Source: Desulfotalea psychrophila LSv54 (GTDB lineage: Bacteria > Desulfobacterota > Desulfobulbia > Desulfobulbales > Desulfocapsaceae). Taken from it: a stretch of DNA of 32,000 nt. This document shows positions 4,979 through 23,191 of this stretch, piece after piece. The translations under genes and the position numbers were made by a program. Below the pieces are notes generated by a model. That model worked only from the letters and a program-made list of their open reading frames with translations. It had not been told where the DNA came from and did not search any database. How positions within the stretch are numbered: position 1 is the first letter of the stretch; every line of letters begins with the position of its first letter. Location: the NCBI RefSeq assembly GCF_000025945.1, contig NC_006138.1:3420001-3452000 (forward strand), given 5' to 3'.

Positions 4979-5917
4979 CTATTTAAAATTTCTTTCCTTG
5001 TAAGCATCGGCAATCAGCTTCAGCTTATCAAAAAGAGCAGGCTCAAGCGTCGCATCTACCAACTCGTAATCACGACCAATATAACCATACTTTGGCTGGC
5101 CCATACGATGATACTCAAGTACCTCGTACTCTACAGGATCTCCGGGAAGGCTTTCCAAAAATTCAACAATTGCCTTAATATCTTCTTCAGTATCATTAAA
5201 GCCTGGAATAATTGGAGTTCGAGCACGAATAGGAACGCTTGGCGCCATTTCACGAATTTTTCGTAAATTTTCCAACGGGAGCTTATTGGACACACCAGTA
5301 AACTCTTTATGCTTCTCTTCGTTAAGACTCTTTACATCAAACATAATGGTATTGAGATAGGGAACACAGGCCTCAATATTTTCCCATTTAGCAGCGCCAC
5401 AGGTCTCAACGGCAGTCTTTATACGTCTGTGACGAGCTTCTCGCAACAGGGCAAGGGCAAACTCTGCTTGAGCAAAAGGTTCTCCTCCAGAGAGTGTCAT
5501 GCCACCGCCTGAACGAGCATAGAAGATAGCGTCTTCTTCAACACGATCAACTACTTTCTTAACAGTCATCTCTTCACCGTACATGTTCAGGGCACCAGAA
5601 GGACAGGCATCGGCGTAAGCTTGCTCATTGCTAACAAATTCACGACGCAATACAACCTTACCGTCTGCTCCCTCGGCAATTGCACCGTCGGTACATACCT
5701 CAGTACAACGAACACATTTATCAAGTCCTAAACATTTACTGGGGTTATAGGCCAACTCTGGCTTATGTTTTTGCGATTCAGGATTACAGCACCACTTACA
5801 ATGCAATGGACATCCCTTTAAAAATGCAACAGTGCGGATGCCCGGGCCATCGTGAACGGAATATTTTTGAACGTTAAAAACAACGCCCTTTATTTTATTA
5901 TCTAAAAGTGAACTCAT
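4979..5917 (-). CDS. islB: Glycyl radical enzyme activating enzyme (radical SAM, with ferredoxin-like insert)
   Basis: N-terminus is MSSLLDNKIKGVVFNVQKYSVHDGPGIRTVAFLKGCPLHCKWCCNPES (GRE-activase signature plus CxxxCxxC). Extra Cys clusters are CLGLDKCVRCTEVC and CPSGAL. It sits immediately downstream of the GRE. The start is set at ATG 5917 (the track ORF extends to 6001). The symbol depends on the GRE assignment. Confidence 0.9.
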   Translation of the reverse strand: MSSLLDNKIKGVVFNVQKYSVHDGPGIRTVAFLKGCPLHCKWCCNPESQKHKPELAYNPSKCLGLDKCVRCTEVCTDGAIAEGADGKVVLRREFVSNEQAYADACPSGALNMYGEEMTVKKVVDRVEEDAIFYARSGGGMTLSGGEPFAQAEFALALLREARHRRIKTAVETCGAAKWENIEACVPYLNTIMFDVKSLNEEKHKEFTGVSNKLPLENLRKIREMAPSVPIRARTPIIPGFNDTEEDIKAIVEFLESLPGDPVEYEVLEYHRMGQPKYGYIGRDYELVDATLEPALFDKLKLIADAYKERNFK

Positions 5918-8584: not shown

Positions 8585-8600
8585 AGCAACAGGCGTGCCA
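8585..8600 (-). promoter_or_regulatory. Canonical sigma-54 (-24/-12) promoter for the GRE/activase unit
   Basis: The minus strand reads TGGCACGCCTGTTGCT (TGGCAC-N5-TTGC, GG-N10-GC). The -12 element lies ~70 nt upstream of the GRE ATG. Confidence 0.75.
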
Positions 8601-8776
8601 TTTACAAAAAAAAATTCAAGATGCTGAAATAGCGTATAAACACAAAATGAAGAGAGATTTCTCTTCTTATTGATAATGGTTATTATTGCCATGTACTCTT
8701 TGCACGATTGCAACGCCAAGACAAAATATGTCGATAAAATATGCTGATACAGATAGTTAGCCAAAAAAAAGCCAAT

Positions 8777-8819
8777 GTTGCTTTTTTGCAACATGGCACT
8801 TTTGTTGCACAGCTGCACA
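8777..8819 (+). promoter_or_regulatory. Two copies of the repeated motif GTTGC-N6-GCA(C/A); candidate activator (UAS) sites
   Basis: GTTGCTTTTTTGCAAC (8777-8792, a perfect palindrome) and GTTGCACAGCTGCACA (8804-8819). They lie ~180-230 nt upstream of the GRE sigma-54 promoter. The same motif recurs at 15857, 15972, 22786, 22891 and 22970. Confidence 0.5.
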
Positions 8820-8841: not shown

Positions 8842-8879
8842 AAAAAAAAGAGGGCCACGGAAAAAAAACCCCGTGGCCC
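8842..8879 (-). terminator. Rho-independent terminator of BMC operon A
   Basis: On the minus strand, GGGCCACGG-loop-CCGTGGCCC is followed by TC-T8. It lies 45 nt after the AldDH-A stop and is homologous to the hairpin after eutJ at 15986-16017. Confidence 0.75.
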
Positions 8880-8923
8880 CCCTAAACAGCTATGATTCAT
8901 TTATGATAAATCACATATACTTA

Positions 8924-10351
8924 CTATACAATTCTAAAGCTACCTACAAGGGCACAACGACGAAGACGAACAAATGTTGCCGCGTTACTTACACCTTCAC
9001 CGGTTGGAGTAGAGATGGTCATGGAAGTCCAACCCTCACCACCTGCACCAAGTCCGGCAATATGCGGTCCGTTCTTAACAAAGAGACTGGTATTCACAGC
9101 CTTAGCCATTTTCTCCATGTTATGAATATTGGTAGAGTGCATACCAGCAGTGTGACTCAAACCACGCTCAAGCATAAGAGCCCACTCAAGAGCTTGGTCA
9201 AAGTTACGGGCACGAACAACGGGAATAAGTGGCATCATCTGCTCGGTTACAGCGAAAGGATGACGAGCATCGCCTTTCACATCAACGAAGAGAAGTTTAC
9301 ATCCCTTAGGAATGGTGATTCCAGCAAGATCTGCAAGCTTATAAGCATCACGACCAACCCACTTAGGATTAGCACGACACTTATCGGTACCGTAGTCAAG
9401 AAGAACGGTTTTACCGATGGTCTCTGCCTGGGCAAGAGAGATCTCAAATGCGCCGATAGCAGTAAACTCACGTTTGAACTCATCCGCTACAGAATCAACA
9501 ATAATGATCTCTTTTTCATTGGCACAGATCAGGTTGTTATCAAAAGAGGCACCAATATAAATGCTCTCAGCAGCACGAGCAAGATCAGCGGTCTCATCAA
9601 CTACTACAGGAGGATTACCTGCACCAGCTGCGATAAGGCGCTTATCGGTAATCTTACGAGCAGCAGCTACAACAGCCTCGCCACCGGTTACGGTAAGAAG
9701 ATTAATTCCCTCGTAGGTAAAGAGACGTCGGGCCGCATCAAGAGAAGGCTCTTTGATACAGACGAGAAGGTTATGAACACCTGTCTCTTCTACAATAGCC
9801 TTGTTCATCATCTTGATGGTTTCTTGAGTAATACGTTTTGCTGCAGGATGAGGAGCAAAAACAACACTGTTACCACCAGAGATCATGCTGATACCATTAT
9901 TGATAACGGTAGATCCTGGGTTAGTAGAAGGAGTAACAGAGGCAATAACACCCCAAGGAGCATTCTCGATAAGGGTAAAGCCCTCGTCACCGGTAATTGC
10001 TGTAGGCTGAAGAATCTCTGGTCCTGGAGTACGGTTAGCCACAAGCAAGGTCTTAGCAACCTTATCTTCAACATTACCCATACCAGTCTCAGATACAGCC
10101 ATCTCAGAGAGACGACGTGCATTCATGCGAGCAGCGCGACGCATAACATCTACTACACGGTTACGCATAGCAACGGTATCAATAAGCTTGTAAGCCACTT
10201 TGGCTGCCGCTACGGCATCATCAAGCTCATCAAAAACACCCCAATCGCCTGCTGCCGGGGCAGAGGCTACAAGGCTACCATTTTGCGCTTTGCTCAATTG
10301 AGCAAGTACTTCTGATACAATAGACTCAATTTGTGCTTGTCCTATAGACAT
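8924..10351 (-). CDS. eutE: CoA-acylating aldehyde dehydrogenase (EutE/PduP family) with N-terminal encapsulation peptide, copy A
   Basis: Catalytic Cys context is FDNNLICANEKE, plus ENAPWGVIASVTPSTNP. The N-terminus MSIGQAQIESIVSEVLAQL is an amphipathic helix followed by a linker. The start is set at ATG 10351 (GGAG RBS, matching copy B); the track start is 10363. Confidence 0.93.
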   Translation of the reverse strand: MSIGQAQIESIVSEVLAQLSKAQNGSLVASAPAAGDWGVFDELDDAVAAAKVAYKLIDTVAMRNRVVDVMRRAARMNARRLSEMAVSETGMGNVEDKVAKTLLVANRTPGPEILQPTAITGDEGFTLIENAPWGVIASVTPSTNPGSTVINNGISMISGGNSVVFAPHPAAKRITQETIKMMNKAIVEETGVHNLLVCIKEPSLDAARRLFTYEGINLLTVTGGEAVVAAARKITDKRLIAAGAGNPPVVVDETADLARAAESIYIGASFDNNLICANEKEIIIVDSVADEFKREFTAIGAFEISLAQAETIGKTVLLDYGTDKCRANPKWVGRDAYKLADLAGITIPKGCKLLFVDVKGDARHPFAVTEQMMPLIPVVRARNFDQALEWALMLERGLSHTAGMHSTNIHNMEKMAKAVNTSLFVKNGPHIAGLGAGGEGWTSMTISTPTGEGVSNAATFVRLRRCALVGSFRIV

Positions 10352-10372
10352 CTCTAACTCCACTATCTAATT

Positions 10373-10663
10373 TTATTTGGCGTAAAGTTTCCCACCTGAA
10401 GCAGTGATCTGATCAACAATTGCAATAACATTCAGATCAACAGGAGATCTCTCTCCTGTCGCTGTACGGGGCGCAGCGCCACCCCCGCGAACCAAAAGAA
10501 CATACTCGCCCTCTCCAGCCCCAAGGGTATCCACCGTCACTTGACCGTAACGTATTATATCGCCTTCAGCATTAATAAGATCCACAAGAAGCAAACTTGC
10601 ATGAGGGACTCTAGGGTCACGAATAGTTGCAACGACCTGACCTTTCACTCTTCCTAACTCCAT
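10373..10663 (-). CDS. eutN: BMC vertex pentamer (BMC-P, EutN/PduN/CcmL family), copy A
   Basis: 96 aa. MELGRVKGQVVATIRDP...LLLVD...DTLGAGEGEYVLLVRG is typical of EutN/CcmL. Confidence 0.92.
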   Translation of the reverse strand: MELGRVKGQVVATIRDPRVPHASLLLVDLINAEGDIIRYGQVTVDTLGAGEGEYVLLVRGGGAAPRTATGERSPVDLNVIAIVDQITASGGKLYAK

Positions 10664-10707
10664 ACCATTTCCCTCAAATAAATCTGCTTCTTAGACAATC
10701 TACCTTC

Positions 10708-10986
10708 TTATTTTTTCAATCTAATTGGATACACTTCCTCAAGATCCTGATGGGGACGAGGAATAACATGGGCCGCAATAAGCTTGCCCATACGTTTTGC
10801 TGCTGCGGCACCGGCATCAATTGCGGCTTTACACGCGGCAACATCACCACGAATAAGCACACAGACATAACCGCCACCAATACGCTCATAACTCACCAAC
10901 TCTACCTGAGCCGCCTTAGTCATTACGTCTGCTGCATCTACAAGACCGGTTATACCTTTTGCTTCTAATATACCAAGAGCATCCAT
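10708..10986 (-). CDS. eutM: BMC-H hexamer shell protein (PduA/EutM type), copy A
   Basis: 92 aa with PF00936-like features: ALGILEAKG...[12 protein letters not shown]...[21 protein letters not shown]...HVIPRPH. Confidence 0.95.
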   Translation of the reverse strand: MDALGILEAKGITGLVDAADVMTKAAQVELVSYERIGGGYVCVLIRGDVAACKAAIDAGAAAAKRMGKLIAAHVIPRPHQDLEEVYPIRLKK

Positions 10987-11004
10987 TGCTGTTTCCTCTT
11001 CTCT

Positions 11005-11370
11005 CTATTTTTTAGTTGCTTTGGTCGCAGGACGTTTCGCATTAGCTGCTACCTTAGCCGCTGCTGCTGCCGCCTTTTCTTCTGCAAAGATAGAACCTAT
11101 CTTGTCATTCACCAGAACCTCAAGACTATCATCCGGACGAGGAATAACGTTGGTTGCAACACATTCACCCAAACGAGATCCAGCTGCCTTACCTGCATCT
11201 ACAGCTGCTCCAACTGCGCCAAGATCACCCTCACAGATAACAGTTACACCACCTGCTGCATCCGTGGTTATGGTCTTCACAGACACACGGGCAGCCTTAG
11301 TCATAGCATCCGCTACTTCAATGGCGGCAACCAAACCAATTACTTCTACAAAACCTATAGAACCATTCAT
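11005..11370 (-). CDS. BMC-H shell protein with Ala/Lys-rich C-terminal extension, copy A
   Basis: 121 aa. The BMC domain is [27 protein letters not shown]...NVIPRPDD, followed by the tail [40 protein letters not shown]. Confidence 0.9.
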   Translation of the reverse strand: MNGSIGFVEVIGLVAAIEVADAMTKAARVSVKTITTDAAGGVTVICEGDLGAVGAAVDAGKAAGSRLGECVATNVIPRPDDSLEVLVNDKIGSIFAEEKAAAAAAKVAANAKRPATKATKK

Positions 11371-11415
11371 ACTAACGCTTCCTTTCTTTATTGGTTATAA
11401 CCAGAGGGTCAGCAC

Positions 11416-11973
11416 CTATAATATACTACGCATAACTTCAGGCGTAACGCTTGGAATCACAACAGAACGAACAAGCATTGCAGTCTCGGCACAGGCATCA
11501 GCTGCTGCCTGGGTTGCCATACTTACTGCTGCTACATCACCGGTGAGAAGACAAAAAGCCTTACCACCAAGACCCATGGCAATACGTACCTCGGCAATAT
11601 CTACCTCGGCGGTCTTTGCTGCCCGATCTGCCGCTACAATCGCTGAAGATGCGGAAAAAGTCTCTATTATACCCAGGGAAGGCCCCTGTGGTTTTCCTGC
11701 AATGCCAGACATGGCAGCAATAACGGATCGATCAATACTCGGGATAACAAAATGATCCGCCACGGCACCATCGGCACCGTCAATACCTGCAGCCACGGCA
11801 GCTTGAACCGCTGCCACGTCACCGTGCACAGCTGCAATAAACTTACCTGGACAGATGGTCTTCATCATCAAGATCTCTACGCTAGAGGCCTTCATCATCC
11901 TATCTGCAGCCTCAATACCAGCTGCAATACTACTAAATTCAATCATTCCAACTGATTGTATATAAGTTGTCAT
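11416..11973 (-). CDS. pduT: Tandem-domain BMC-T shell protein, PduT type (Fe-S pore), copy A
   Basis: 185 aa with two BMC domains. The KTICPGKF motif is identical to the Salmonella PduT segment that carries the [4Fe-4S] ligand Cys (C41 here). Confidence 0.9.
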   Translation of the reverse strand: MTTYIQSVGMIEFSSIAAGIEAADRMMKASSVEILMMKTICPGKFIAAVHGDVAAVQAAVAAGIDGADGAVADHFVIPSIDRSVIAAMSGIAGKPQGPSLGIIETFSASSAIVAADRAAKTAEVDIAEVRIAMGLGGKAFCLLTGDVAAVSMATQAAADACAETAMLVRSVVIPSVTPEVMRSIL

Positions 11974-11975
11974 GA

Positions 11976-13319
11976 CTACACTCCTTTAATCACTATTTCA
12001 TTACCTACTTCTACCACAGTGCCTGCGATAGAGGCGTGAACTGTAGCACCTAAGGCACCTTGAGGCACTGCACCAACCAACTGACCCACCTGAACAAAAT
12101 CACCTGCCTTAACCTGGGCCACTGCTGGTGCACCGATATGCTGATTAAGTGGAATACGCACCTCAGCAGGAGTATAGTCACCGGTAAAATCAGGATGAAT
12201 ATTCATGAACTTATCAATACCAATCTTCAGGGCCAAACGAGGCACAGGCACCTTACGGTAAGGACGAACCTTAGACTGGGCGGGAATAACCTCACGAGAT
12301 CCCTCATAGGGCACCTTGTTTTCGCGAAAACGAGCCTTTAGAGCTGCGTTAATACGACGAGGAGAAAGGCCCATGGGACAACTAAACAACTCACAAACAC
12401 CACACTCACAACAGAGAGCTGCCTGCATGGCACCAAGGGCGACATCTCCACCACCACCAAAGGCACGCATCACCTTATGGGTCTGAAAATCCTGACCTAT
12501 AAGATAACGGGGACAGAGCTCGGTACAAAGGCGACACTGAATACAGGCAGTGGCAGCCTGGCGCTGCATGCTCTGCAGATCACGGCTGGCCATGGTATGT
12601 AGATAATGACCCCGTGGCAAAATAATAAGACCACCGGTGGTCTTAGTGACTACCTTGGCGGCAAATTCCTCTGCTGAGTCGACCATGCGACCCATCATTG
12701 GCCCACCAAGAATGTAAACAGGATCAGCAATGGTTGCGCCGCCGCAGTGAGCAAGACACTCACTCAACTTGGTGCCAAGAGGCACACGAATAACAGCAGG
12801 GCTACCTACATTACCGGTTACAGTAACAATTTTATGAGTAACTGGCGTACCTTTCATGGCGTCGGCTACTCCGGCAAGAGTACCCACATTGGCAACAACA
12901 GCGCCAACATCCTTAGGCAAACCAAGAGGCGGAATGGTTTTTCCGGTTACCTCGTAGACTAGGGTCTGCTCATCACCTGCTGGATAAAAGTTATCCAACT
13001 GAACAAGCTCTAAACCTGTCCCCTCTATACAGTCAGCAAATATTTTTGCTATTTCGGTATATTTACGTTTTATACCGATAACACCGCGTGTAGCTCCCGT
13101 AACGGAGACGATGGCCTGCATCGCGACAACGATATCCGCTGCGCGGGTTCGCATAATATGTTGATCAGTATGCAACAGTGGCTCACACTCACAACCGTTG
13201 GCTATAACTGTATCCACCTGCGTATCATATTTTACATGGGCGGGAAAACCTGCTCCGCCCTCGCCCACAATACCGGCATCCAGTATCGAGCGAAGAAGAC
13301 TATCTTTATTCATGATCAT
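11976..13319 (-). CDS. pduS: PduS/RnfC-like flavin and Fe-S oxidoreductase, copy A
   Basis: 447 aa. Contains GEGGAGFPAHVKY (NADH-binding RnfC/NuoF-like) and two 4Fe-4S motifs, CIQCRLCTELCP and CCECGVCELFSCP. Size matches PduS. Confidence 0.9.
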   Translation of the reverse strand: MIMNKDSLLRSILDAGIVGEGGAGFPAHVKYDTQVDTVIANGCECEPLLHTDQHIMRTRAADIVVAMQAIVSVTGATRGVIGIKRKYTEIAKIFADCIEGTGLELVQLDNFYPAGDEQTLVYEVTGKTIPPLGLPKDVGAVVANVGTLAGVADAMKGTPVTHKIVTVTGNVGSPAVIRVPLGTKLSECLAHCGGATIADPVYILGGPMMGRMVDSAEEFAAKVVTKTTGGLIILPRGHYLHTMASRDLQSMQRQAATACIQCRLCTELCPRYLIGQDFQTHKVMRAFGGGGDVALGAMQAALCCECGVCELFSCPMGLSPRRINAALKARFRENKVPYEGSREVIPAQSKVRPYRKVPVPRLALKIGIDKFMNIHPDFTGDYTPAEVRIPLNQHIGAPAVAQVKAGDFVQVGQLVGAVPQGALGATVHASIAGTVVEVGNEIVIKGV

Positions 13320-13358
13320 CTCTTTAAGTTCGCTAGAGAGCTACAAAAAAAACGGCTG

Positions 13359-13637
13359 TTACTTGTCACGTTTGAAAGGGAAGACTTCTTCCAAATCACC
13401 ATGTGGACGTGGAATAACGTGCACAGCTACTACCTCGCCAATACGTGCTGCTGCTGCTGCACCTGCATCGGTAGCGGCCTTACATGCTGCCACATCACCA
13501 CGAACAATCGCAGTTACGAGACCAGCACCAATTTGCTTGTAACCTACCAGTTGTACGCGAGCAGCTTTTACCATTGCATCTGAAGCTTCGATGAGTGCGG
13601 TCAAGCCTTTAGTTTCAATCATTCCTAATGAATCCAT
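13359..13637 (-). CDS. BMC-H hexamer shell protein, copy A (first shell gene of the operon)
   Basis: 92 aa, [59 protein letters not shown]...HVIPRPH. Confidence 0.95.
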
Positions 13638-13696
13638 TGTATTCCTCCAAGTTTCGTGTAACGAAAAAAGTTTTACTCTATTTTACCAACATCCGT

Positions 13697-14677
13697 TTAT
13701 AGGCACTGACCTACAACGGCAACCTTATATATATCATCCGCAGTACAACCACGGGAAAGATCATGCCAACCTGCAGCAAAACCCTGAAGAAGCGGGCCAA
13801 GAGCTGTATACCCACCCAAACGCTGAGCGAGCTTATAGCCAATATTACCTGCTTCAAGAGAAGGAAAGATAAGCACATTTGCCATTCCTTCAACTACACT
13901 ACCGGGAGCCTTTTGGGCAGCAACACTTGGGACGATAGCTGCATCGAGTTGTAGCTCACCGTCAACCAACATATCAGGAGCGCGCTTACGAATTTGCTCA
14001 ACGGTATCACGAACAAAAATTGCCCGCTCATGATTGGCGCTACCCTTAGTAGAAAAAGAGAGCATGGCCACCCGAGGTTCTTCACCGAGTAACTTGCGCG
14101 CCTTATCCGCCGATGATATGGCTATATCAGCCAAAGTATTTTCATTGGGCACTGGCACTACACCACAATCGGCAAAGATATAATCTTTTCCGCCTTCCGG
14201 TGCTATCATAAAAAAGAAGCTGGAGATGGTTTTCATACCCTGCTGCTTGGGCAGAAACTGCAAACCTGCACGAATAACATTACCAGTCGAAGATATATTA
14301 CCGGAAACACCCAGATTAACCTCCTCACGACGCACCATCATAGCTGCACCGGCAAGGGGACATCTCATGGCCTTTACGGCATCATCCATGCTCAGCTTTT
14401 TACCCTTTGCCTCACGAATTGCAATAAATTCATTGGCATTTTTTTCAAGCAGAGAGGGACTGGTATGGTCAACCACGGTCACCCCACGACTTGAACATTT
14501 TGCCTCCCGCATCTTAGCGCGAACAGCAAACGGAGAACCCATAAATACTGGATGAGCAAGCCCTTCTGCCTGAAGACGACCAGCCGCCTCAAAAACTCTC
14601 TTATCGAGGCAATCAGGAAAGACAATTGTCTTAGGCGCTTTACGACATACATCTTTACAACGTTCTAATATGCTCAC
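13697..14677 (-). CDS. eutD: Phosphate acetyltransferase (EutD/Pta, PTA_PTB family)
   Basis: 326 aa with IVFPDCLDKRV..AA, GNISSTGNVIRA, FSTKGSA, AGNIGYKLAQRLGG. Present only in module A. Confidence 0.9.
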   Translation of the reverse strand: MSILERCKDVCRKAPKTIVFPDCLDKRVFEAAGRLQAEGLAHPVFMGSPFAVRAKMREAKCSSRGVTVVDHTSPSLLEKNANEFIAIREAKGKKLSMDDAVKAMRCPLAGAAMMVRREEVNLGVSGNISSTGNVIRAGLQFLPKQQGMKTISSFFFMIAPEGGKDYIFADCGVVPVPNENTLADIAISSADKARKLLGEEPRVAMLSFSTKGSANHERAIFVRDTVEQIRKRAPDMLVDGELQLDAAIVPSVAAQKAPGSVVEGMANVLIFPSLEAGNIGYKLAQRLGGYTALGPLLQGFAAGWHDLSRGCTADDIYKVAVVGQCL

Positions 14678-14686
14678 ACTTATCTC

Positions 14687-15511
14687 CTAAGCAACGTTGT
14701 TGATGCACGCAATACGTACAGAAGTGGGAGTACTATAGGTTACATCTACACCTTCGGGGAAATAAACCATATCGCCAACCTTAGCCACCAAGGTTTTTCC
14801 ACAAATATCAAGATGTAACTCACCTGCAACAACAACACCTACCTCTGGACATTCCACGGTACGCTTGAAAGATGCCTTCTCCCACTCCATATAACCACCG
14901 GCAAGTTGAGCGCCAGCACATTCGCCCAGGGCATCGGCAATAAACACCTGTTCTGCTACAGCTACAGGAGCACCGGCATTTGCCTTAAGAAGGCGATCGC
15001 CCTCAACCACACAGATACCACCACAGGAAGAAGAGGCATTCTCTGCTACCAGAGAGACAGAAACATCAGGCTGAGCAAGTCTTTCCGTTACTACCCTACG
15101 CACAAGACTCTCAAGAGCCTCATCGGTCAACACACCCGGAAGGCGCTTTTTCAGGATTTCACAGACTTCAGAAATCAGGACATCGGCCTCGCCTGAGGTG
15201 TTCACTGGAGCAGTTGGAGTAACTATGGCAGGAGCAGCAAAAGCCACTGGCGCTACAGGAGCAGCAGGTTTTACTGGAACAGCTGGGGCCGCCGGAGCAA
15301 CTGGGGCAGCCGGAGCAGGAGTACTGGTAAGAGGACAGGCCTCAACCACAACCTTCTTCTCTTCAACCTGGAGTATTTTCAAACCTAACTCCAAGGCCTT
15401 ATCAACTGCTTGAGGGGTAATAATACACTCTTGAGGCGGGCATAGGATCGACTTCTTCCCACTCTTGAGGGCCCCATTAATATCGGCTTCGGTTATAATC
15501 CGCTTTCCCAT
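14687..15511 (-). CDS. eutQ: EutQ-like cupin protein with Ala/Pro-rich internal linker, copy A
   Basis: 274 aa. The N-terminus MGKRIITEADINGAL...ITPQA resembles Salmonella EutQ (MKKLITANDIR...). Next comes a ~45-aa linker (PAPAAPVAPAAPAVPVKPAAPVAPVAFAAPA...), then a C-terminal cupin (GGYMEWEKASF...GDMVYFPEG). AGGAGG RBS. Confidence 0.85.
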   Translation of the reverse strand: MGKRIITEADINGALKSGKKSILCPPQECIITPQAVDKALELGLKILQVEEKKVVVEACPLTSTPAPAAPVAPAAPAVPVKPAAPVAPVAFAAPAIVTPTAPVNTSGEADVLISEVCEILKKRLPGVLTDEALESLVRRVVTERLAQPDVSVSLVAENASSSCGGICVVEGDRLLKANAGAPVAVAEQVFIADALGECAGAQLAGGYMEWEKASFKRTVECPEVGVVVAGELHLDICGKTLVAKVGDMVYFPEGVDVTYSTPTSVRIACINNVA

Positions 15512-15691
15512 GCACTTCCTCCTACTGTTTTATATCTTATAGAGTCCTTCCCTCTTAAAAGCTGAGAGGCAAAGACCATCAATTTGAAAAATAACAAATT
15601 ATTACAATAACTTTTCATCCAGAACAGCTCATAAAAAGAGACGTTTAACCGAGCGACAGCATTCCAAAATGAAAAAACTCTATCCTCTTCT

Positions 15692-15707
15692 AGCAAAATT
15701 CGTGCAA
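15692..15707 (-). promoter_or_regulatory. Sigma-54-like element with a degenerate -24 box, upstream of operon A
   Basis: The minus strand reads TTGCACGAATTTTGCT (GCAC-N5-TTGCT, but TG instead of GG). It lies 181 nt upstream of the eutQ-A ATG. A syntenic counterpart sits 177 nt upstream of eutQ-B. Confidence 0.35.
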
Positions 15708-15856
15708 AAAAAACACATGTTCTCTTTTTTTTTGTTGTTAGCGAAAAAAAATCCTATTTCCATAGGGAAAACCAAGCCATCCTTAAAAAAAATATCAGGC
15801 AAATCCTTTTTTTTCAGGAAAAGAGAGAGACAAAGGCCAAGAAACAATGGCCAAAA

Positions 15857-15872
15857 GTTGCATTTTCGCACA
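15857..15872 (+). promoter_or_regulatory. GTTGC-N6-GCAC motif copy
   Basis: GTTGCATTTTCGCACA, read directly. Confidence 0.45.
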
Positions 15873-15971
15873 AAAAGACAAGTAGTCTCCTGAATAACCA
15901 GCTAAAAGAGCAAGGCATTAACATGTAGTTCTAACGCCTTAACACGATGCTCCGGCTCACAGGCAACACGG

Positions 15972-15987
15972 GTTGCGTTTTTGCATC
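15972..15987 (+). promoter_or_regulatory. GTTGC-N6-GCA motif copy
   Basis: GTTGCGTTTTTGCATC, read directly. It abuts the operon B terminator. Confidence 0.45.
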
Positions 15988-16017
15988 AAAAAGAGCCACC
16001 GAAGAATCCCCGATGGC
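15986..16017 (-). terminator. Probable rho-independent terminator of BMC operon B
   Basis: On the minus strand, GCCATCG-loop(9)-CGGTGGC (one G-U pair) is followed by TCTTTTT. It lies 32 nt after the eutJ stop. The sequence AGCTGTTTAGGG..CCA.CGGGG is homologous to the operon A terminator. Confidence 0.55.
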
Positions 16018-16048
16018 CCTAAACAGCTCCCCCATAATCTGCAAAATG

Positions 16049-16864
16049 CTAACGTAAATTCAGCGACGCTATGGAAAATGGAGTAAGCATAAGAGGCTGG
16101 GTCGGTAGCTGAATAGGCAACTTCAACTCCTTCTCAAAGACCCCTACAACCCCGGGCAAACAACAGGTACCGCCAGAGAGCAAAATAGTCTCCACCTCCT
16201 GACCCCTTATATGATCTGCCACAATATCAGTCACCCGTTCCAAGGTTGGACGGACAATACTGAGAATATTAAATTCAGCGGCCTTGCGTTTACGCTGCTC
16301 TGCCTCTTCTATAGAGATATCATAGTAACCGGCAATGGTCAGAGAAAGATGCTTACCGCCCGTAGGCTCGTCATCACTAAAAACCACCTGACTATTCCTC
16401 ACCACAGCAGTACCGGTGGTACCACCACCAATATCAACAATGGCGGCCTTATTCAGATCAAGAAGATGAGCAACACAGCTTGGCTCATCCTCTACATAGG
16501 TGACCTCAAGCCCCACAGATTCCAAGATATTTATCGAGAGGCGCGCATCTGTTCCCGGAGGAAAAGATGTCGAGGCTTGGGTGATTTCACAGCCAAGACG
16601 CTCTTCGGCCTGCTTGATAAAGCGACGGACAATATCAATAGCGCCGACATAATCGACAACCACGCCATCACGTACCACCTCTGCCCATTCCAGGAAAACG
16701 GCAACAGGTTCGCCCTCGGCATCAATGGCCATCAAGACAACATCGGCTGTACCTAAATCAATACCAACGTGAATTGGCCCCTCTACTTCAACTGCTTCGG
16801 TATCATTAATCATTGCCGCAGCACGGTCGAGCCTTTCGCAGGCGAGTTCCCATGAAATAGCCAT
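16049..16864 (-). CDS. eutJ: EutJ-like actin/Hsp70-fold ATPase (putative BMC chaperone)
   Basis: Contains VGIDLGTADVVLMA, DGVVVDYVGA, IVDIGGGTTGTAV and LSGGTCCLPG. The start is set at ATG 16864 (MAISWELA...), directly abutting the AldDH-B stop; the track ORF extends to 16942 and overlaps AldDH. Present only in module B. Confidence 0.88.
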   Translation of the reverse strand: MAISWELACERLDRAAAMINDTEAVEVEGPIHVGIDLGTADVVLMAIDAEGEPVAVFLEWAEVVRDGVVVDYVGAIDIVRRFIKQAEERLGCEITQASTSFPPGTDARLSINILESVGLEVTYVEDEPSCVAHLLDLNKAAIVDIGGGTTGTAVVRNSQVVFSDDEPTGGKHLSLTIAGYYDISIEEAEQRKRKAAEFNILSIVRPTLERVTDIVADHIRGQEVETILLSGGTCCLPGVVGVFEKELKLPIQLPTQPLMLTPFSIASLNLR

Positions 16865-16865
16865 A

Positions 16866-18293
16866 CTAGACAATCCTAAAGCTGCCGACAAGGGCACAGC
16901 GACGAAGACGAACAAAGGTCGCTGCGTTAGTAACACCTTCACCGGTTGGAGTGGAGATAGTCATGGAAGTCCAACCTTCACCGCCTGCACCAAGTCCGGC
17001 AATATGGGGACCATTTTTCACAAAGAGACTGGTATTAACGGCCTTGGCCATTCTCTCCATATTGTGAATATTGGTGGAGTGCAGACCAGCGGTATGACTC
17101 AAACCGCGTTCAAGCATAAGAGCCCACTCAAGAGCTTGATCAAAGTTACGGGCACGAACAACAGGAATAAGCGGCATCATCTGCTCGGTTACAGCAAAAG
17201 GATGACGGGCGTCACCTTTTACGTCAACAAAGAGAAGTTTACAACCAGCAGGAATGGTTACTCCGATAAGCTCTGCAAGCTTATAGGCATCACGGCCAAC
17301 CCATTTAGGATTAGCACGACACTTATCGGTACCGTAATCAAGAAGAACGGTCTTACCAATGGCCTCTGCCTGCTCAAGAGAAATTTCAAAGGCACCAGCG
17401 GCGACAAACTCACGCTTAAACTGATCCGCTACAGACTCAACAACAATAATCTCTTTCTCGTTGGCGCAGATGAGGTTGTTATCAAAGGAGGCACCGATAT
17501 AAATACTTTCAGCAGCACGGGCAAGATCCGCTGTCTCATCAACCACAACGGGAGGATTACCAGCACCTGCGGCAATAAGACGCTTATCGGTGACCTTACG
17601 AGCAGCCTTAACAACGGCTTCACCACCGGTTACGGTGAGAAGATTAATTCCCGGATAGGTAAAGAGACGTTGGGCCGCATCAAGAGATGGCTCTTTAATG
17701 CAAACGAGCAGGTTATTAATACCAGTCTCCTCTGCAATAGCCTTATTCATGAGCTTAATAGCCTCTTGAGTGATGCGCTTTGCGGCAGGATGCGGAGCAA
17801 AGACAACTGCATTACCACCTGAGATCATACTGATACCGTTATTAATAACAGTTGATCCAGGATTGGTAGAGGGAGTAACCGAGGCAATAACACCCCAAGG
17901 AGCATTCTCTATAAGGGTAAAGCCATCATCACCGGTAATTGCCGTGGGCTGAAGAATCTCAGGACCCGGAGTGCTGTTGGCCACAAGCAGTGTTTTCAAC
18001 ACCTTATCTTCTATATTGCCCATGCCCGTTTCTGCAACAGCCTTCTCAGCAAGGGGACGTGCATTCATCCGGGCGGCACGACGCATTACCTCAACGACAC
18101 GGGTACGCATAGCAACAGTATCAATAAGCTTGCAAGCCGCCTTAGCTGCCGCAACGGCATCATCCAACTCATCAAAGACACCCCAATCACCTGCTGCCGA
18201 GCCAGACAAAACAGGAGCACCCTGCTGAACATTACCTATTTGAGAAATAACCTCTGCGACAATAGACTCAATTTGTTCGCGGCCAATAGACAT
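16866..18293 (-). CDS. eutE: CoA-acylating aldehyde dehydrogenase (EutE/PduP family) with N-terminal encapsulation peptide, copy B
   Basis: 475 aa. By eye roughly nine in ten residues are identical to copy A. It has the same catalytic motif ICANEKE. The N-terminus is MSIGREQIESIVAEVISQIG. Confidence 0.93.
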   Translation of the reverse strand: MSIGREQIESIVAEVISQIGNVQQGAPVLSGSAAGDWGVFDELDDAVAAAKAACKLIDTVAMRTRVVEVMRRAARMNARPLAEKAVAETGMGNIEDKVLKTLLVANSTPGPEILQPTAITGDDGFTLIENAPWGVIASVTPSTNPGSTVINNGISMISGGNAVVFAPHPAAKRITQEAIKLMNKAIAEETGINNLLVCIKEPSLDAAQRLFTYPGINLLTVTGGEAVVKAARKVTDKRLIAAGAGNPPVVVDETADLARAAESIYIGASFDNNLICANEKEIIVVESVADQFKREFVAAGAFEISLEQAEAIGKTVLLDYGTDKCRANPKWVGRDAYKLAELIGVTIPAGCKLLFVDVKGDARHPFAVTEQMMPLIPVVRARNFDQALEWALMLERGLSHTAGLHSTNIHNMERMAKAVNTSLFVKNGPHIAGLGAGGEGWTSMTISTPTGEGVTNAATFVRLRRCALVGSFRIV

Positions 18294-18314
18294 CTCTTAC
18301 CCCACTCTCTAATT

Positions 18315-18602
18315 TTATTTACTATAAATCACTTCATTCAGAGCACTGATCTGGTCAACAATGGCAACAACGCTCAGGTCAATCGGTGGCTTCCCTCCGC
18401 CCACCACAAGCGCGGCACCACTTCCCCGCACCAGGAGGACATACTCGCCCTCTCCGGCACCGAGAGTATCTGCAGCCACATGTCCCTCGCGTCTTACCAC
18501 ACCATCAGCGCGAATGAAGTCAACAAGAAGCAAGCTTGTATGGGGAACCTTAGGATCACGAATGGTAGCAACTACCTGACCTCTTACTCTTGCCAATTCC
18601 AT
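18315..18602 (-). CDS. eutN: BMC vertex pentamer (EutN/PduN/CcmL family), copy B
   Basis: The start is set at ATG 18602 (MELARVRGQVVATIRDP...), giving 95 aa. By hand alignment about two-thirds of residues are identical to copy A, with a 1-aa indel. Confidence 0.9.
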   Translation of the reverse strand: MELARVRGQVVATIRDPKVPHTSLLLVDFIRADGVVRREGHVAADTLGAGEGEYVLLVRGSGAALVVGGGKPPIDLSVVAIVDQISALNEVIYSK

Positions 18603-18649
18603 ACTCTTTCTCCCCAACCACACATTACTTCACAGACTGCGTGATTTAA

Positions 18650-18928
18650 TTATTTATTCAATTTAATTGGAAAAATTTCCTCAAGGTCCTGATGAGGACG
18701 AGGAATAACATGGGCGGCAATAAGCTTACCCATACGTTTTGCGGCTGCAGCGCCCGCATCTATTGCAGCCTTACAGGCAGCGACATCGCCACGAATAAGC
18801 ACACAGACATAACCACCACCAATACGCTCGTAACTCACCAACTCTACCTGAGCCGCCTTGGTCATAACATCTGCTGCCTCTATAAGGCCGGTAATACCTT
18901 TTGCCTCTAATATTCCAAGAGCATCCAT
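18650..18928 (-). CDS. eutM: BMC-H hexamer shell protein, copy B
   Basis: 92 aa, with 6 differences from 10708-10986 (hand count). Confidence 0.95.
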
Positions 18929-18945
18929 ACTATGTCCTCTGTTTT

Positions 18946-19314
18946 CTATTTTTTGACTGCCTTAGAAGCCAATTCTTTCGCGGGCTTAGCTGCCGCAATA
19001 GCGGCAGCTGCCTTTTCCTCTGCAAAAACAGAACCAATTTTATCGGTCAAAAGAGCTTCAAGGCTTTCATCTGGACGGCCAATAACGTTGGTACCGACAC
19101 ATTCACCCAAGCGAGAGCCAGCTGCCTTACCGGCATCTACGGCTGCGCCAACTGCGGCAAGATCACCCTCACAGATAACGGTTACACCACCTGCTGCATC
19201 CGTGGTTATGGTCTTCACAGACACGCGAGCAGCCTTAGCCATAGCATCAGCAACTTCAATGGCGGCAACCAGACCAACAACTTCAACAAAACCTATAGAA
19301 CCATCCATGCTCAT
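18946..19314 (-). CDS. BMC-H shell protein with Ala/Lys-rich C-terminal extension, copy B
   Basis: 122 aa (or 120 aa from ATG 19308). It has a BMC domain plus the tail [39 protein letters not shown]. Confidence 0.9.
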
Positions 19315-19343
19315 CTTACCTCTTTTAATTGGTTAGCCCGCAC

Positions 19344-19901
19344 CTACAATATACTACTCATAACCTCTGGAGTAACACTTGGAATCACAACAGAACGGAC
19401 AAGCATTGCAGTCTCGGCACAGGCATCAGCTGCTGCCTGGGTTGCCATACTGACTGCAGCCACATCACCGGTGAGAAGACAAAAAGCCTTACCACCAAGA
19501 CCCATGGCAATACGTACTTCGGCAATATCTACCTCGGCAGTCTTCGCGGCACGATCTGCGGCCACAATTGCAGAGGATGCAGAAAAAGTCTCTATAATAC
19601 CAAGAGAACAACCCTGTGGTTTACCGGCAATACCGGACATTGCAGAAATAACGGATTGGTCAATGCTAGGAATTACGAAATGATCCGCTACGGCGCCATC
19701 GGCACCGTCAATACCAGCAGCCACGGAAGCCTGAACCGCAGCCACGTCACCGTGTACCGCTGCAAGAAACTTACCAGGACAGATGGTCTTCATCATCAAA
19801 ATCTCTACACTGGAGGCCTTCATCATACGATCTGCGGCTTCAATACCGGCTGCAATGCTGGTAAATTCTATCATTCCAACTGACTGAATATAAGCTGTCA
19901 T
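19344..19901 (-). CDS. pduT: PduT-type tandem BMC-T shell protein, copy B
   Basis: 185 aa, with 8 differences from copy A (hand count). KTICPGKF is retained, and residues 99-181 are identical. Confidence 0.9.
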   Translation of the reverse strand: MTAYIQSVGMIEFTSIAAGIEAADRMMKASSVEILMMKTICPGKFLAAVHGDVAAVQASVAAGIDGADGAVADHFVIPSIDQSVISAMSGIAGKPQGCSLGIIETFSASSAIVAADRAAKTAEVDIAEVRIAMGLGGKAFCLLTGDVAAVSMATQAAADACAETAMLVRSVVIPSVTPEVMSSIL

Positions 19902-19903
19902 GA

Positions 19904-21247
19904 CTACGCTCCTTTAATCACTACTTCATTACCTACTTCCATTACAGTACCTGCAATAGAGGCATGAATTTTTGCACCCAAGGCTCCCTTAGGCACTGCA
20001 CCAATCAACTGACCCACCTTGACAACATCACCTTTTTTGACCTGAGCCACAGATGGTGCACCGATATGCTGATGAAGCGGAATACGCACCTCAGCAGGAA
20101 TATAATCACCGGTGAAGGCAGGATGAAGATCCATAAAACGATCTATACCAATCTTCAAAGCCAAACGAGGCACTGGCACCTTACGATAAGGGCGCATGTC
20201 TGATTGGGCAGGAATCACTGCTCGAGAGCCCTCGTAAGGAATCCTTTCCTGACGCATTTTTGCTCTAATGGCAGCATTGATACGACGAGGAGAAAGGCCC
20301 ATGGGACAGCTAAACATTTCACAGACGCCACATTCACAACAGAGAAAAGCCTGTTCAAGGCCAGCACCATTCAATCCACCCGCAGCAAAGGCACGCATCA
20401 CCTTATGGGTTTGAAAATCCTGACCTATAAGATAGCGCGGACAAAGATCGGTACAGAGGCGACACTGAATACAGGTACTGGCAGCCTGACGTTCCATGGT
20501 ATGGATATCACGACTGGCCATCACATGCAGATAATGACCTCGGGGCAGAACAATGAGTCCACCGGTGGTCTTAGTCACCATCTTAGTGGCAAAGTCCTCT
20601 TCGGAATCCACCATGCGACCCATCATAGGGCCACCAAGAATGTATATAGGATCGGCGACAGTTGAGCCACCACAATGAGCAAGACACTCGCTCATCTTAG
20701 TTCCCAAAGGCACACGAATAACAGCAGGAGAGCCAACATCACCGGTTACGGTAACAATCTTATGAGTTAAGGGTGTTCCCTTAATGGCTGCAGCTACCTC
20801 AGCCAAAGTGCCCACATTGGCAACAACTGCACCAACATCTTTAGGTAGACCAAGAGGCGGAATGGTCTTTCCAGTTACCTCGTAAACCAAAGCCTGCTCA
20901 TCACCTGCTGGATAAAAGTTATCCAATTGGGCAAGCTCCAGGCCTGTTCCTTCTATACAGTCCGCAAATATTTTTGCTATCTCGGTATACTTACTCTTTA
21001 TACCGATAACACCGCGGGTAGCTCCCGTAACGGAGACGATGGCCTGCATCGCAACAACAATATCCGCTGCACGGGTACGCATAATATGTTGATCAGTATG
21101 CAACAGTGGCTCACACTCACAACCGTTGGCTATAACTGTATCCACCTGCGTGTCATATTTAACATGGGCGGGAAAACCTGCTCCGCCCTCGCCCACAATA
21201 CCGGCATCCAGTATCGAGCGAAGAAGACTATCTTTATTCATGATCAT
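19904..21247 (-). CDS. pduS: PduS/RnfC-like flavin and Fe-S oxidoreductase, copy B
   Basis: 447 aa. The first 84 residues are identical to copy A, and divergence rises toward the C-terminus. Both 4Fe-4S motifs are retained. Confidence 0.9.
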   Translation of the reverse strand: MIMNKDSLLRSILDAGIVGEGGAGFPAHVKYDTQVDTVIANGCECEPLLHTDQHIMRTRAADIVVAMQAIVSVTGATRGVIGIKSKYTEIAKIFADCIEGTGLELAQLDNFYPAGDEQALVYEVTGKTIPPLGLPKDVGAVVANVGTLAEVAAAIKGTPLTHKIVTVTGDVGSPAVIRVPLGTKMSECLAHCGGSTVADPIYILGGPMMGRMVDSEEDFATKMVTKTTGGLIVLPRGHYLHVMASRDIHTMERQAASTCIQCRLCTDLCPRYLIGQDFQTHKVMRAFAAGGLNGAGLEQAFLCCECGVCEMFSCPMGLSPRRINAAIRAKMRQERIPYEGSRAVIPAQSDMRPYRKVPVPRLALKIGIDRFMDLHPAFTGDYIPAEVRIPLHQHIGAPSVAQVKKGDVVKVGQLIGAVPKGALGAKIHASIAGTVMEVGNEVVIKGA

Positions 21248-21286
21248 CTCTTTGGGGTCGCTAGAGAGCTACAAAAAAAACGGCTA

Positions 21287-21565
21287 CTATTTGTCACGTT
21301 TGAAGGGAAATACTTCTTCCAGGTCACCATGTGGACGTGGAATAACGTGTACAGCTACCACCTCGCCAATACGTGCGGCTGCTGCTGCACCTGCATCGGT
21401 TGCTGCTTTACATGCTGCAACATCACCACGAACAATCGCAGTTACCAAACCAGCACCAATTTGTTTGTAACCTACAAGTTGTACACGAGCAGCCTTTACC
21501 ATTGCATCTGAAGCTTCAATAAGTGCGATCAAGCCCTTAGTTTCAATCATTCCTAATGAATCCAT
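21287..21565 (-). CDS. BMC-H hexamer shell protein, copy B
   Basis: 92 aa. It has one amino-acid difference (T13I) from 13359-13637 despite about two dozen nucleotide differences (hand count). Confidence 0.95.
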
Positions 21566-21623
21566 TGTATTTCTCCAAGTTTCGTATAACGAAAAAGTTT
21601 TACTCTATTTTGCTACCATCCAT

Positions 21624-21668
21624 TTATAGGCACTGACCTACAACGGCAATTTTCTATACCATCCGCAT
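21624..21668 (-). pseudogene. Remnant of the 3' end of pta/eutD in module B
   Basis: ttataggcactgacctacaacggcaa is identical over 26 nt to the last codons plus stop of pta-A (13697-13722). A further ~20 nt are similar with a 1-nt indel, and homology is then lost. No pta ORF is present in module B. Confidence 0.8.
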
Positions 21669-21759
21669 CCTGGAGCCGCTCAAGGGGAGGAGACACCCTA
21701 GAGCACAAAAGAGGCTCAATACAGGCACGGATCGTCTACTATAACAACATTCGCTTTGA

Positions 21760-22440
21760 TTACTCTGCAGGCTTATTAACGCAGGCTATACGCACAGAGG
21801 TAGGAGTACTGCAAATCACTTCGACAGCCTTAGGGAAATAAACCATATCACCTGCCTCGGCCACCATTTTTTTACCGTCAACCTCAAGATGAAGGGTACC
21901 TGCTACCACCACCGCCACCTCAGGTGATTTTAGCGTACGGGTAAAAGATCCCTTTTCCCATTGCATATGACCGCCAACAAGAGAGGTACCTGCAGTCAAC
22001 TCTTTAACAGCCAAAGAAGCACCATCATTTTCTCTGACAAGACGATCTTCCTCAATGAGAGAGACACCAGCACAAGAGGCAACCACGCCTTCCACTGGAG
22101 ATTGAACAACAACTGGTTCGGCAAGCTTGGCCGTAACAACACGACGAACAAGAGACTCTAAGGCATCTGCTGCCGGGGCTCCCGCCACAGATTCCTGAAT
22201 AATGCCACACACCTCAGCAATAAGGGTGTCCGTTGCGGAAGATCCACGCACAGGGACATAAGAACAGTTCTCCTGAGCTACAAGTCCTGGAGCCTCAAAA
22301 AGTATTTCAACCCCCTGTGCCTGCGCCATTTCAACTGCCTGCTGAGTGACAATGCATTCCTGGGGCGGACATAGGATTGATTTATGACAACCTTGGAGAA
22401 CCTTTTCAATATCGGCCTCGCTTATAATCCGCTTTCCCAT
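21760..22440 (-). CDS. eutQ: EutQ-like cupin protein, copy B (lacks the Ala/Pro linker)
   Basis: 226 aa. N-terminus is MGKRIISEADIEKVL...CPPQECIVTQQA, with the cupin GGHMQWEKGSF...GDMVYFPKA. It is the most diverged paralog pair in the two modules. Confidence 0.85.
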   Translation of the reverse strand: MGKRIISEADIEKVLQGCHKSILCPPQECIVTQQAVEMAQAQGVEILFEAPGLVAQENCSYVPVRGSSATDTLIAEVCGIIQESVAGAPAADALESLVRRVVTAKLAEPVVVQSPVEGVVASCAGVSLIEEDRLVRENDGASLAVKELTAGTSLVGGHMQWEKGSFTRTLKSPEVAVVVAGTLHLEVDGKKMVAEAGDMVYFPKAVEVICSTPTSVRIACVNKPAE

Positions 22441-22616: not shown

Positions 22617-22632
22617 AGCAATTATCGTGCTA
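22617..22632 (-). promoter_or_regulatory. Sigma-54-like element with a degenerate -24 box, upstream of operon B
   Basis: The minus strand reads TAGCACGATAATTGCT (GCAC-N5-TTGCT). It lies 177 nt upstream of the eutQ-B ATG and is syntenic with 15692-15707. Confidence 0.35.
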
Positions 22633-23175: not shown

Positions 23176-23191
23176 TGGCACTGTCTTTGCT
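23176..23191 (+). promoter_or_regulatory. Canonical sigma-54 (-24/-12) promoter for the amidohydrolase-fold gene
   Basis: TGGCACTGTCTTTGCT (TGGCAC-N5-TTGC, GG-N10-GC). The -12 element lies ~130 nt upstream of ATG 23322. Confidence 0.7.

Follow-up and report, generated by a model that had tools for sequence, protein, structure and literature searches.

The closest described system to the locus reported here is the IslAB bacterial microcompartment (BMC) of Bilophila wadsworthia 3.1.6 (Burrichter et al. 2021, PMC8667426; Peck et al. 2019; PMC12125255), in which isethionate is converted to sulfite and acetaldehyde, and acetaldehyde to acetyl-CoA and then acetyl phosphate (PMC8667426). A microcompartment locus of this kind is present in a stretch of 32,000 nucleotides (nt) of the Desulfotalea psychrophila LSv54 chromosome (NC_006138.1, positions 3,420,001 to 3,452,000; the whole stretch, numbered from its first letter, is called the window). 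Both loci harbor an IslA-type glycyl radical enzyme (GRE) with its activase, an acylating aldehyde dehydrogenase (AldDH), a phosphotransacetylase (Pta), an EutQ-like protein, PduS and PduT, BMC-H shell proteins and EutN, as well as a neighboring amidohydrolase gene, putative sigma-54-type promoters and the same upstream motif before the GRE gene. However, Bilophila has a single module, in the order amidohydrolase-pduS-pduT-BMCH-eutQ-pta-BMCH-eutN-aldDH-GRE and with fewer shell genes, and the Bilophila loci examined have no match to eutJ, whereas in the window the whole operon occurs two times, one copy having pta and the other eutJ. Halodesulfovibrio, other Desulfobacterota and two close relatives represented by contigs L161 and L162 have an identical module gene order, 72-97% amino acid identity and matching flanks (the GRE at one end, EtfAB and the amidohydrolase at the other), but their single copy holds both pta and eutJ, whereas the window has two copies with reciprocal losses.

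What is known is therefore the kind of system, an IslAB microcompartment, and what is new is the architecture, a whole operon doubled. Microcompartment loci are usually read as one operon giving one organelle; here an entire operon, with its putative promoter and its terminator, is present twice, and both copies are kept under purifying selection and tied to each other by the reciprocal loss of pta and eutJ and by apparent gene conversion. In the literature, we found nothing describing a tandem duplication of a BMC operon, its reciprocal losses or its regulatory architecture. The carboxysomal CcmK3/K4 satellite locus and loci with multiple BMC-H genes embody a similar idea, with near-identical shell paralogs that mix in one shell and a separate transcription that allows tuning (Sutter et al. 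2021), but these cases concern single shell genes, whereas in the window the full shell set and the core enzymes are duplicated as an operon.

In a previous survey, D. psychrophila LSv54 was classified as GRM1, with two loci and 7 BMC-H, 4 BMC-T and 2 BMC-P genes; both AldDHs are included in that data set, and the sole comment is that the second locus may have a distinct function (Axen et al. 2014). In the window, the two AldDHs belong to two tandem paralogous operons, which may be these "two loci". Both BMC-P genes of the genome-wide count lie inside the window and, assuming that the classes of Axen et al. are equivalent to the Pfam-based ones, one further BMC-H and two BMC-T genes must lie elsewhere without a pentamer gene. 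The locus resembles GRM1 (choline) systems in being a GRE-associated metabolosome with PduS, PduT, EutQ, EutJ and two AldDHs. However, the second AldDH of GRM1 has its catalytic Cys mutated to Ser or Pro (Axen et al. 2014), whereas both AldDHs of the window keep it, and the GRE of the window fails the CutC model (TIGR04394 choline_CutC, 506 bits for a cut-off of 1050) and has the sulfonate-binding residues of IslA. On both counts the sequences disagree with the GRM1 label, and the locus, catalogued as "GRM1" in a psychrophilic marine sulfate reducer that serves as a model, is better re-assigned to the isethionate/sulfonate type.

The GRE is about 69% identical to Bilophila IslA, and its scores against solved structures are highest for IseG (5YMR, 1361 bits) and IslA (7KQ3, 1357 bits), followed by HpsG (6LON, 1177 bits) and CutC (about 416-511 bits). 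It keeps the catalytic residues C466, E468 and G803 and the IslA sulfonate-binding residues R187, Q191 and R676. These matches point to isethionate as the likely substrate; as the GRE has N190 in the place of I192 and its NCBIfam equivalog match is named for HpsG, the exact sulfonate is a prediction. An acylating AldDH plus Pta core is present (both AldDHs score 642-644 bits on NF011927), and given these two enzymes the same chemistry as in Bilophila is expected, with PduS and PduT as the proposed electron outlet. The locus predicts sulfonate respiration in Desulfotalea, for which we found nothing in the literature linking the genus to isethionate use. At residue 190, the GRE has an Asn in the place of Ile192 of IslA, a position occupied by Ile or Leu in all 40-odd relatives. 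Its two closest genome relatives, L010 and L011, have an HpsG-like RSALQW version of the motif that includes this residue.

The two AldDHs are 100% identical to CAG37757.1 (AldDH_A) and CAG37768.1 (AldDH_B) in a protein search, and the chromosome carrying both entries is finished (3,523,383 bp). Genes were called from a map of open reading frames (ORFs) with their translations, followed by Pfam and NCBIfam scans, and are read from high to low coordinates. They form two colinear modules on the minus strand, A (8924-15511) and B (16049-22440), whose components are listed in Table 1. Module B has the order eutQ-BMCH-pduS-pduT-BMCHt-BMCH-eutN-aldDH-eutJ, where BMCHt is a BMC-H with a C-terminal tail, and module A the order eutQ-pta-BMCH-pduS-pduT-BMCHt-BMCH-eutN-aldDH, with pta between eutQ and the first BMC-H gene. 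According to Pfam, each module codes for three single-domain BMC-H proteins (PF00936), one PduT-type BMC-T with two BMC domains, one BMC-P of the EutN_CcmL family, PduS, an acylating AldDH and an EutQ-like protein, and each has a complete shell set of BMC-H, BMC-T and BMC-P. The likely true starts are at 10351 for AldDH_A, 18602 for EutN_B, 16864 for EutJ and 5917 for the activase. The window contains one IslA-like GRE and its activase, downstream of module A. An earlier note, made from the letters of the window, had described most of this arrangement, and it holds: the same gene order occurs twice, about 7.9 kb apart (the offset is 7,928 nt), and each copy has three BMC-H, one BMC-T and one BMC-P at the positions that the note had given. 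Pfam, PDB and NCBIfam matches likewise agree with its statement that the GRE and activase genes lie downstream of module A only and that pta is in module A only, and with its placing of eutJ (348.8 bits on NCBIfam EutJ) and of the adjoining amidohydrolase-fold gene with module B only.

The doubled module was found in this genome only. A PduS scan of one genome per species gave 80 loci and a metagenome scan 80 more; a doubled module was found in none of the 159 loci with hits from these genome and metagenome scans, and L161 and L162, the two closest contigs, which came from a protein search, are also single-module (161 loci in total). Every relative found has the single module whose existence had been proposed as a check on the duplication. 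Among the Desulfobacterota, every locus of this type is single-copy and ordered eutQ-pta-BMCH-pduS-pduT-BMCHt-BMCH-eutN-aldDH-eutJ, usually with the amidohydrolase gene adjoining and with the GRE and activase genes nearby in a variable position. In L161, EtfA, EtfB and amidohydrolase genes are followed by a divergent eutQ-pta-...-aldDH-eutJ module, and in L162 aldDH-eutJ is followed by a co-directional GRE gene, the product of which is 86% identical to the GRE of the window. Together, the two contigs display both flanks of the window around a single module. The metagenome scan with PduS_B gave only Bilophila-like (~60%) and Firmicutes matches and no close relatives. A 212-amino acid ORF between the amidohydrolase gene and eutQ of L161 looks spurious and has no counterpart in the window.

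In neighbor-joining trees that include L161 and L162 as outgroups, the A and B copies are sisters in all 200 bootstrap replicates for PduS, PduT and AldDH, in 199 for BMC-H1, 179 for EutN, 170 for BMC-H3 and 166 for EutQ. Horizontal acquisition of one of the modules was considered and rejected, as A and B are mutually closest in 7 of the 8 gene trees. Because the two copies are each other's closest relatives, the doubling is a tandem duplication that arose within the Desulfotalea lineage and took in a complete transcription unit. Another route to two modules may be represented by the metagenome-assembled genome of Desulfovibrio sp. UBA6079, which has two loci with differing gene orders on contigs L036 and L043, one Halodesulfovibrio-like and one Bilophila-like, possibly due to contamination. 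In Halodesulfovibrio (L001-L004), the complete single module and the amidohydrolase gene are present while the GRE is absent within 10 kb, and the signature enzyme of these loci must be encoded elsewhere or be a different one.

The gene contents of A and B point to complementary losses. In module B, 194 nt separate eutQ_B from the first BMC-H gene, and a run of 26 of them is identical to the end of pta_A including its stop codon; the relic translates as (K)IAVVGQCL*, compared with KVAVVGQCL* at the end of the Pta of A. From this relic, module B formerly had pta. No eutJ relic was found by blastn or tblastn in the gap between AldDH_A and the GRE gene (8515-8923). The terminators following AldDH_A and eutJ have in common the 12-mer AGCTGTTTAGGG at an equal position, which is the sole hint of a former eutJ in module A, and the homology of the modules stops exactly at the AldDH stop codons. 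Taken with the gene order of the relatives, the pattern is one of reciprocal loss, of pta from B and of eutJ from A.

Over the colinear part (A 13742-8922 vs B 21667-16864) the copies are 83.6% identical along 4,836 nt. At the amino acid level, the identity between A and B is 99% for BMC-H3, 96% for PduT, 93% for BMC-H1, 89% for AldDH, 86% for PduS, 84% for the tailed BMC-H, 66% for EutN and 56% for EutQ. All 16 paired genes are intact, and the ratio of nonsynonymous to synonymous divergence (dN/dS) is 0.025-0.18 for dS values of about 0.4-2.1 in all eight gene pairs. The earlier note had concluded that both copies are under purifying selection and that they represent neither an assembly artefact nor a recent duplication; dN/dS of 0.03-0.18 in 8/8 pairs and the intact ORFs bear out the first point, and, together with the finished 3.52-Mb genome, also the absence of an artefact and of a very recent event. 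An assembly artefact or a collapsed strain mixture has a negligible probability: nothing was found in its favor, the chromosome is finished, the two AldDHs have separate GenBank entries, and the copies are 16% apart at the nucleotide level, differ in gene content and have unique junctions. A neutral redundancy on its way to loss, in which the pta and eutJ deletions would be early decay, is more serious, as each copy has already lost genes and the doubled arrangement is found in one genome only. It is nevertheless very unlikely, since 16 paired genes remain intact with low dN/dS at dS of ~0.4-2, a divergence too large for unconstrained copies, and the losses are complementary and not piled up in one copy.

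The divergence is uneven along the modules, the identity in 100-nt steps ranging from 59 to 98%. Between the pta relic and about codon 80 of PduS, a stretch that takes in BMC-H3, sliding dS is 0.07-0.4; it is 0.5-2 elsewhere, apart from a further low-dS stretch at the 3' end of pduT. The low-dS tract of ~0.7 kb includes intergenic DNA that is 93% identical. The simplest reading of these sliding dS and identity values is a gene-conversion tract of about 0.7 kb laid on an older duplication, and codon bias of highly expressed shell genes could contribute to the signal. The BMC-H pair 13359-13637 / 21287-21565, for which the earlier note had counted about two dozen nucleotide changes and one amino acid change by hand, indeed differs at 23 nt and 1 amino acid. 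This pair sits in the least diverged part of the modules; because this tract was probably gene-converted, the pair probably understates the age of the duplication.

Rates of evolution are symmetric between A and B for the shell proteins and AldDH in relative-rate tests with L161 as outgroup. By the same test, copy-specific substitutions are more numerous in B than in A for PduS (33 vs 13, p = 0.003) and EutQ (44 vs 16, p = 0.0003). The components that diverge first after the duplication are PduS, EutQ and the pentamer. EutQ_A and EutQ_B also differ in a Pro/Ala-rich linker of ~45 residues, present in A only, while their first 30 residues and their cupin domain are conserved.

The genes for AldDH_A, EutJ and the activase are each followed by a strong intrinsic terminator, and these three terminators divide the minus strand into three units, module B, module A and islA-islB. 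The -24/-12 consensus TGGCAC-N5-TTGC is perfect upstream of the GRE and amidohydrolase genes. The GRE element is found at a similar distance in L162 (-88 vs -86) and is present also in Bilophila loci, and the element of the amidohydrolase gene is conserved in Halodesulfovibrio loci. At the orthologous place upstream of eutQ, L007 has the TTGCAC variant of eutQ_A, L006 has the TAGCAC variant of eutQ_B and L010 has the canonical TGGCAC. The regions upstream of eutQ_A and eutQ_B have diverged save for the sigma-54-like elements and copies of the 15-mer GTGCAAAAANGCAAC. Six sites of this motif occur in the whole window at no more than 2 mismatches, all on the minus strand and all within three promoter regions, that of the GRE holding one, that of A two and that of B three. 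The motif copies lie 150 and 265 nt from the promoter in A, and 154 and 259 nt from it in B; because these spacings are kept, the duplicated unit would have included the promoter region. The GTGCAAAAANGCAAC motif and -24/-12 elements precede eutQ and GRE in relatives, including Bilophila and L162, so that this putative activator motif and sigma-54 promoter architecture is common to the window and the H2S-producing pathway of Bilophila. An Rfam scan of the window at gathering thresholds gave no match, and hence no riboswitch or small RNA account of the long spacers; a scan for sigma-70 promoters gave fewer promoter-like sites than in shuffled sequences and is uninformative. A further perfect TGGCAC-N5-TTGC match (8794-8808, plus strand) reads into the 3' end of AldDH_A and directly abuts the palindromic motif of the GRE unit; a place in the activator-binding region is more likely for it than a promoter function.

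A and B might also be condition-specific versions of one organelle with the same function, expressed at different inducer levels, temperatures or redox states of this psychrophile. The variants at -24 and the motif numbers (2 vs 3) differ between A and B, the tuning of PduS, EutQ and EutN could differ per version, the asymmetric evolution is confined to PduS and EutQ, and CcmK3/K4, separately regulated shell paralogs thought to tune permeability, provide a precedent (Sutter et al. 2021). This possibility seems unlikely in view of the overall promoter architecture, which is conserved between A and B, and of the reciprocal loss of pta and eutJ, which leaves neither operon with the full ancestral set.

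The proteins of both modules retain the residues expected for function. Both AldDHs keep the catalytic Cys (NNLICANEKE) and an N-terminal helix resembling an encapsulation peptide (EP), the Fe-S cysteines of PduS and PduT are retained in A and B, and the BMC-T proteins have PduT-type trimers as best PDB matches (3NWG/3PAC/3N79), with the CPGK cysteine preserved. The BMC-H pore loops and the edge motifs DAMxKAA and (I/V)PRP(H/D) are alike in the two modules, with the sole exception of a Pro-to-Gly change in the tailed BMC-H of B.

These features bear on whether A and B build two distinct organelles, A encapsulating the IslA pathway and B forming shells around another or unknown cargo, such as the amidohydrolase or an enzyme encoded elsewhere. 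Such a separation was already hinted at by the speculation that the "second GRM1 locus" of this organism may differ in function (Axen et al. 2014), and it would agree with the two terminator-bounded operons, the strong divergence of EutN and EutQ, the acceleration of PduS_B and EutQ_B, and the presence of the amidohydrolase, with its EP-like helix, next to B only. We nevertheless consider it improbable. The amidohydrolase, the C-terminal amphipathic helix of which (ADLVRSIVAEVVARQ) resembles an encapsulation peptide, is transcribed divergently from module B; it also accompanies the single module in most relatives (in Bilophila as HMPREF0179_00649), so that it is ancestral and not a B-specific cargo. 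Module B has neither pta nor its own signature enzyme, common upstream motifs precede A, B and the GRE unit, and apparent gene conversion links the copies. With shell edge and pore motifs alike and one BMC-H pair a single amino acid apart, there is also no visible basis for a separation. A variant in which two distinct shells arise from one regulon, an A-type for C-S cleavage by IslA and a B-type with the diverged PduS, EutQ and EutN, is rather doubtful; B could then be specialized for another reaction or redox role, for example around the amidohydrolase. If true, it would be a natural bacterial case of organelle duplication and divergence.

One co-regulated organelle of mixed A and B paralogs is favored instead, because the units have regulatory signals in common, the losses of pta and eutJ complement each other, no signature enzyme is specific to B, the shell interfaces are nearly identical and the copies appear to be linked by gene conversion. 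The earlier note had left the choice between two distinct organelles and one organelle with heteromeric shells and doubled core dosage; the evidence leans to the latter and disfavors the former. In this scenario, the ancestral unit was an operon for the shell and core of an IslA-type (isethionate/sulfonate) glycyl-radical microcompartment; it consisted of an activator motif, a sigma-54-type promoter, the genes eutQ-pta-BMCH-pduS-pduT-BMCHt-BMCH-eutN-aldDH-eutJ and a terminator, and was duplicated in tandem. The upstream copy B then lost pta and the downstream copy A eutJ, part of the copy pair was probably homogenized by gene conversion, and PduS and EutQ of B diverged faster than their A partners. 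Because both operons and the islA-islB unit keep the same regulatory signals, they would most likely be switched on together, by one sulfonate-responsive activator. We infer from these signals and interfaces that the modules would be co-expressed and co-assembled, giving one organelle population with shells mixing A and B paralogs, a doubled supply of shell, AldDH and PduS/PduT electron conduit, and Pta coming from A only and EutJ from B only. As a whole explanation, duplication with reciprocal loss and conversion followed by co-expression into mixed-shell organelles appears reasonably probable.

Several observations weigh against it. The putative promoters of eutQ_A (TTGCAC) and eutQ_B (TAGCAC) lack the first G of the sigma-54 GG, and the promoters of A and B differ, including in motif number (2 vs 3), so that differential expression is possible. 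Shuffled promoter regions contain a mean of 0.08 GTGCAAAAANGCAAC sites with a maximum of 2, and 0/1000 shuffles reach 6, but the motif was derived from the same sequences, which makes this enrichment partly circular, the independent support coming from the relatives only. No regulator or activator gene is present in the 32-kb window; in Bilophila, a PAS-domain regulator is encoded beside islB. The sister relationship of the tailed BMC-H copies has weak support (45 of 200 bootstraps). Finally, separate operons leave room for a condition-specific use or a specialization of B, and the low identity of EutN (66%) and EutQ (56%) and the acceleration of PduS_B and EutQ_B could mark specialization rather than dosage. 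The locus offers a natural system for asking whether near-identical shell paralogs mix and what benefit a doubled dosage of shell, AldDH, PduS and PduT provides.

Table 1. Coordinates of the features of the duplicated microcompartment locus and its regulatory elements in the window (EP, encapsulation peptide; UAS, upstream activating sequence).
Feature	Position	Strand	Remarks
Strong terminator after the activase gene	4917-4884	-	
GRE-activating radical SAM enzyme, IslB-like	4979..5917	-	Pfam Radical_SAM/Fer4_12; TIGR02494 341 bits (cut-off 174), NF048010 481.8 bits
Activase ORF (reaches 6001; likely start is the ATG at 5917)		-	
Glycyl radical enzyme, IslA/IseG-like sulfonate C-S lyase	6028..8514	-	Best PDB 5YMR, 7KQ3
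Perfect sigma-54-type -24/-12 element TGGCACGCCTGTTGC	8586..8600	-	72 nt upstream of the GRE ATG
Palindromic upstream motif ATGTTGCAAAAAAGCAACAT, UAS-like, GRE unit	8775..8794	unassigned	
Intrinsic terminator closing module A	8848..8883	-	15-bp stem then T run
AldDH_A, acylating aldehyde dehydrogenase	8924..10351	-	Catalytic Cys kept, N-terminal amphipathic EP-like helix
EutN_A, BMC-P	10373..10663	-	Pfam
Module A BMC-H copy 1	10708..10986	-	Pfam
Module A BMC-H with Ala/Lys-rich C-terminal tail	11005..11370	-	Pfam
Module A BMC-T, PduT-like, CPGK Fe-S cysteine	11416..11973	-	Pfam, PDB
PduS_A, flavo-Fe-S protein	11976..13319	-	Pfam, NCBIfam
Module A BMC-H copy 3	13359..13637	-	Pfam
Phosphotransacetylase, module A only	13697..14677	-	NF007233 352.7 bits
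EutQ_A, cupin protein, Pro/Ala-rich linker of ~45 residues	14687..15511	-	Pfam, NCBIfam
Sigma-54-like element TTGCACGAATTTTGC, 182 nt upstream of eutQ_A	15693..15707	-	First G of GG replaced
Two UAS-like motifs upstream of module A	15857-15871, 15972-15986	-	
Intrinsic terminator closing module B	15992..16020	-	
EutJ, module B only	16049..16864	-	NCBIfam EutJ 348.8 bits
AldDH_B, acylating aldehyde dehydrogenase, catalytic Cys kept	16866..18293	-	CAG37768.1
EutN_B, BMC-P	18315..18602	-	Pfam
Module B BMC-H copy 1	18650..18928	-	Pfam
Module B BMC-H with Ala/Lys tail	18946..19314	-	Pfam
Module B BMC-T, PduT-like	19344..19901	-	Pfam
PduS_B, faster-evolving copy	19904..21247	-	Pfam, relative-rate test
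Module B BMC-H copy 3	21287..21565	-	Pfam
pta 3'-end relic in the eutQ_B-BMC-H spacer	21624..21649	-	26/26 nt match to A 13722-13697
EutQ_B, without linker, faster-evolving copy	21760..22440	-	Pfam, NCBIfam
Sigma-54-like element TAGCACGATAATTGC, 178 nt upstream of eutQ_B	22618..22632	-	
Three UAS-like motifs, eutQ_B/amidohydrolase divergent region	22786-22800, 22891-22905, 22970-22984	-	
Perfect sigma-54-type element upstream of the amidohydrolase gene	23176..23190	+	
Amidohydro_2-fold protein, C-terminal Pro/Ala linker and amphipathic EP-like helix	23322..24281	+	

The best solved relative of the amidohydrolase is 3IRS, an uncharacterized protein. Downstream of its gene, genes coding for EtfB, a ferredoxin-fused EtfA and an HdrD-like membrane Fe-S protein (24839-28947, plus strand) form an operon that is syntenic in the close relative L161 and is a candidate for the cytoplasmic or membrane electron acceptor of the PduS/PduT route. 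Further along, a fused DctQM TRAP permease and a DctP binding protein are encoded on the minus strand (29432-31948), cut by the end of the window. Homologs of this transporter that are 63-66% identical lie beside the GRE or the module in L018, L019, L035, L038, L042 and L044, which suggests that it may be the sulfonate uptake system. At the other end of the window, the region 835-4696 (plus strand) codes for a YcaO-domain protein, an RluA-type pseudouridine synthase and a radical SAM protein with no evident link to the microcompartment.

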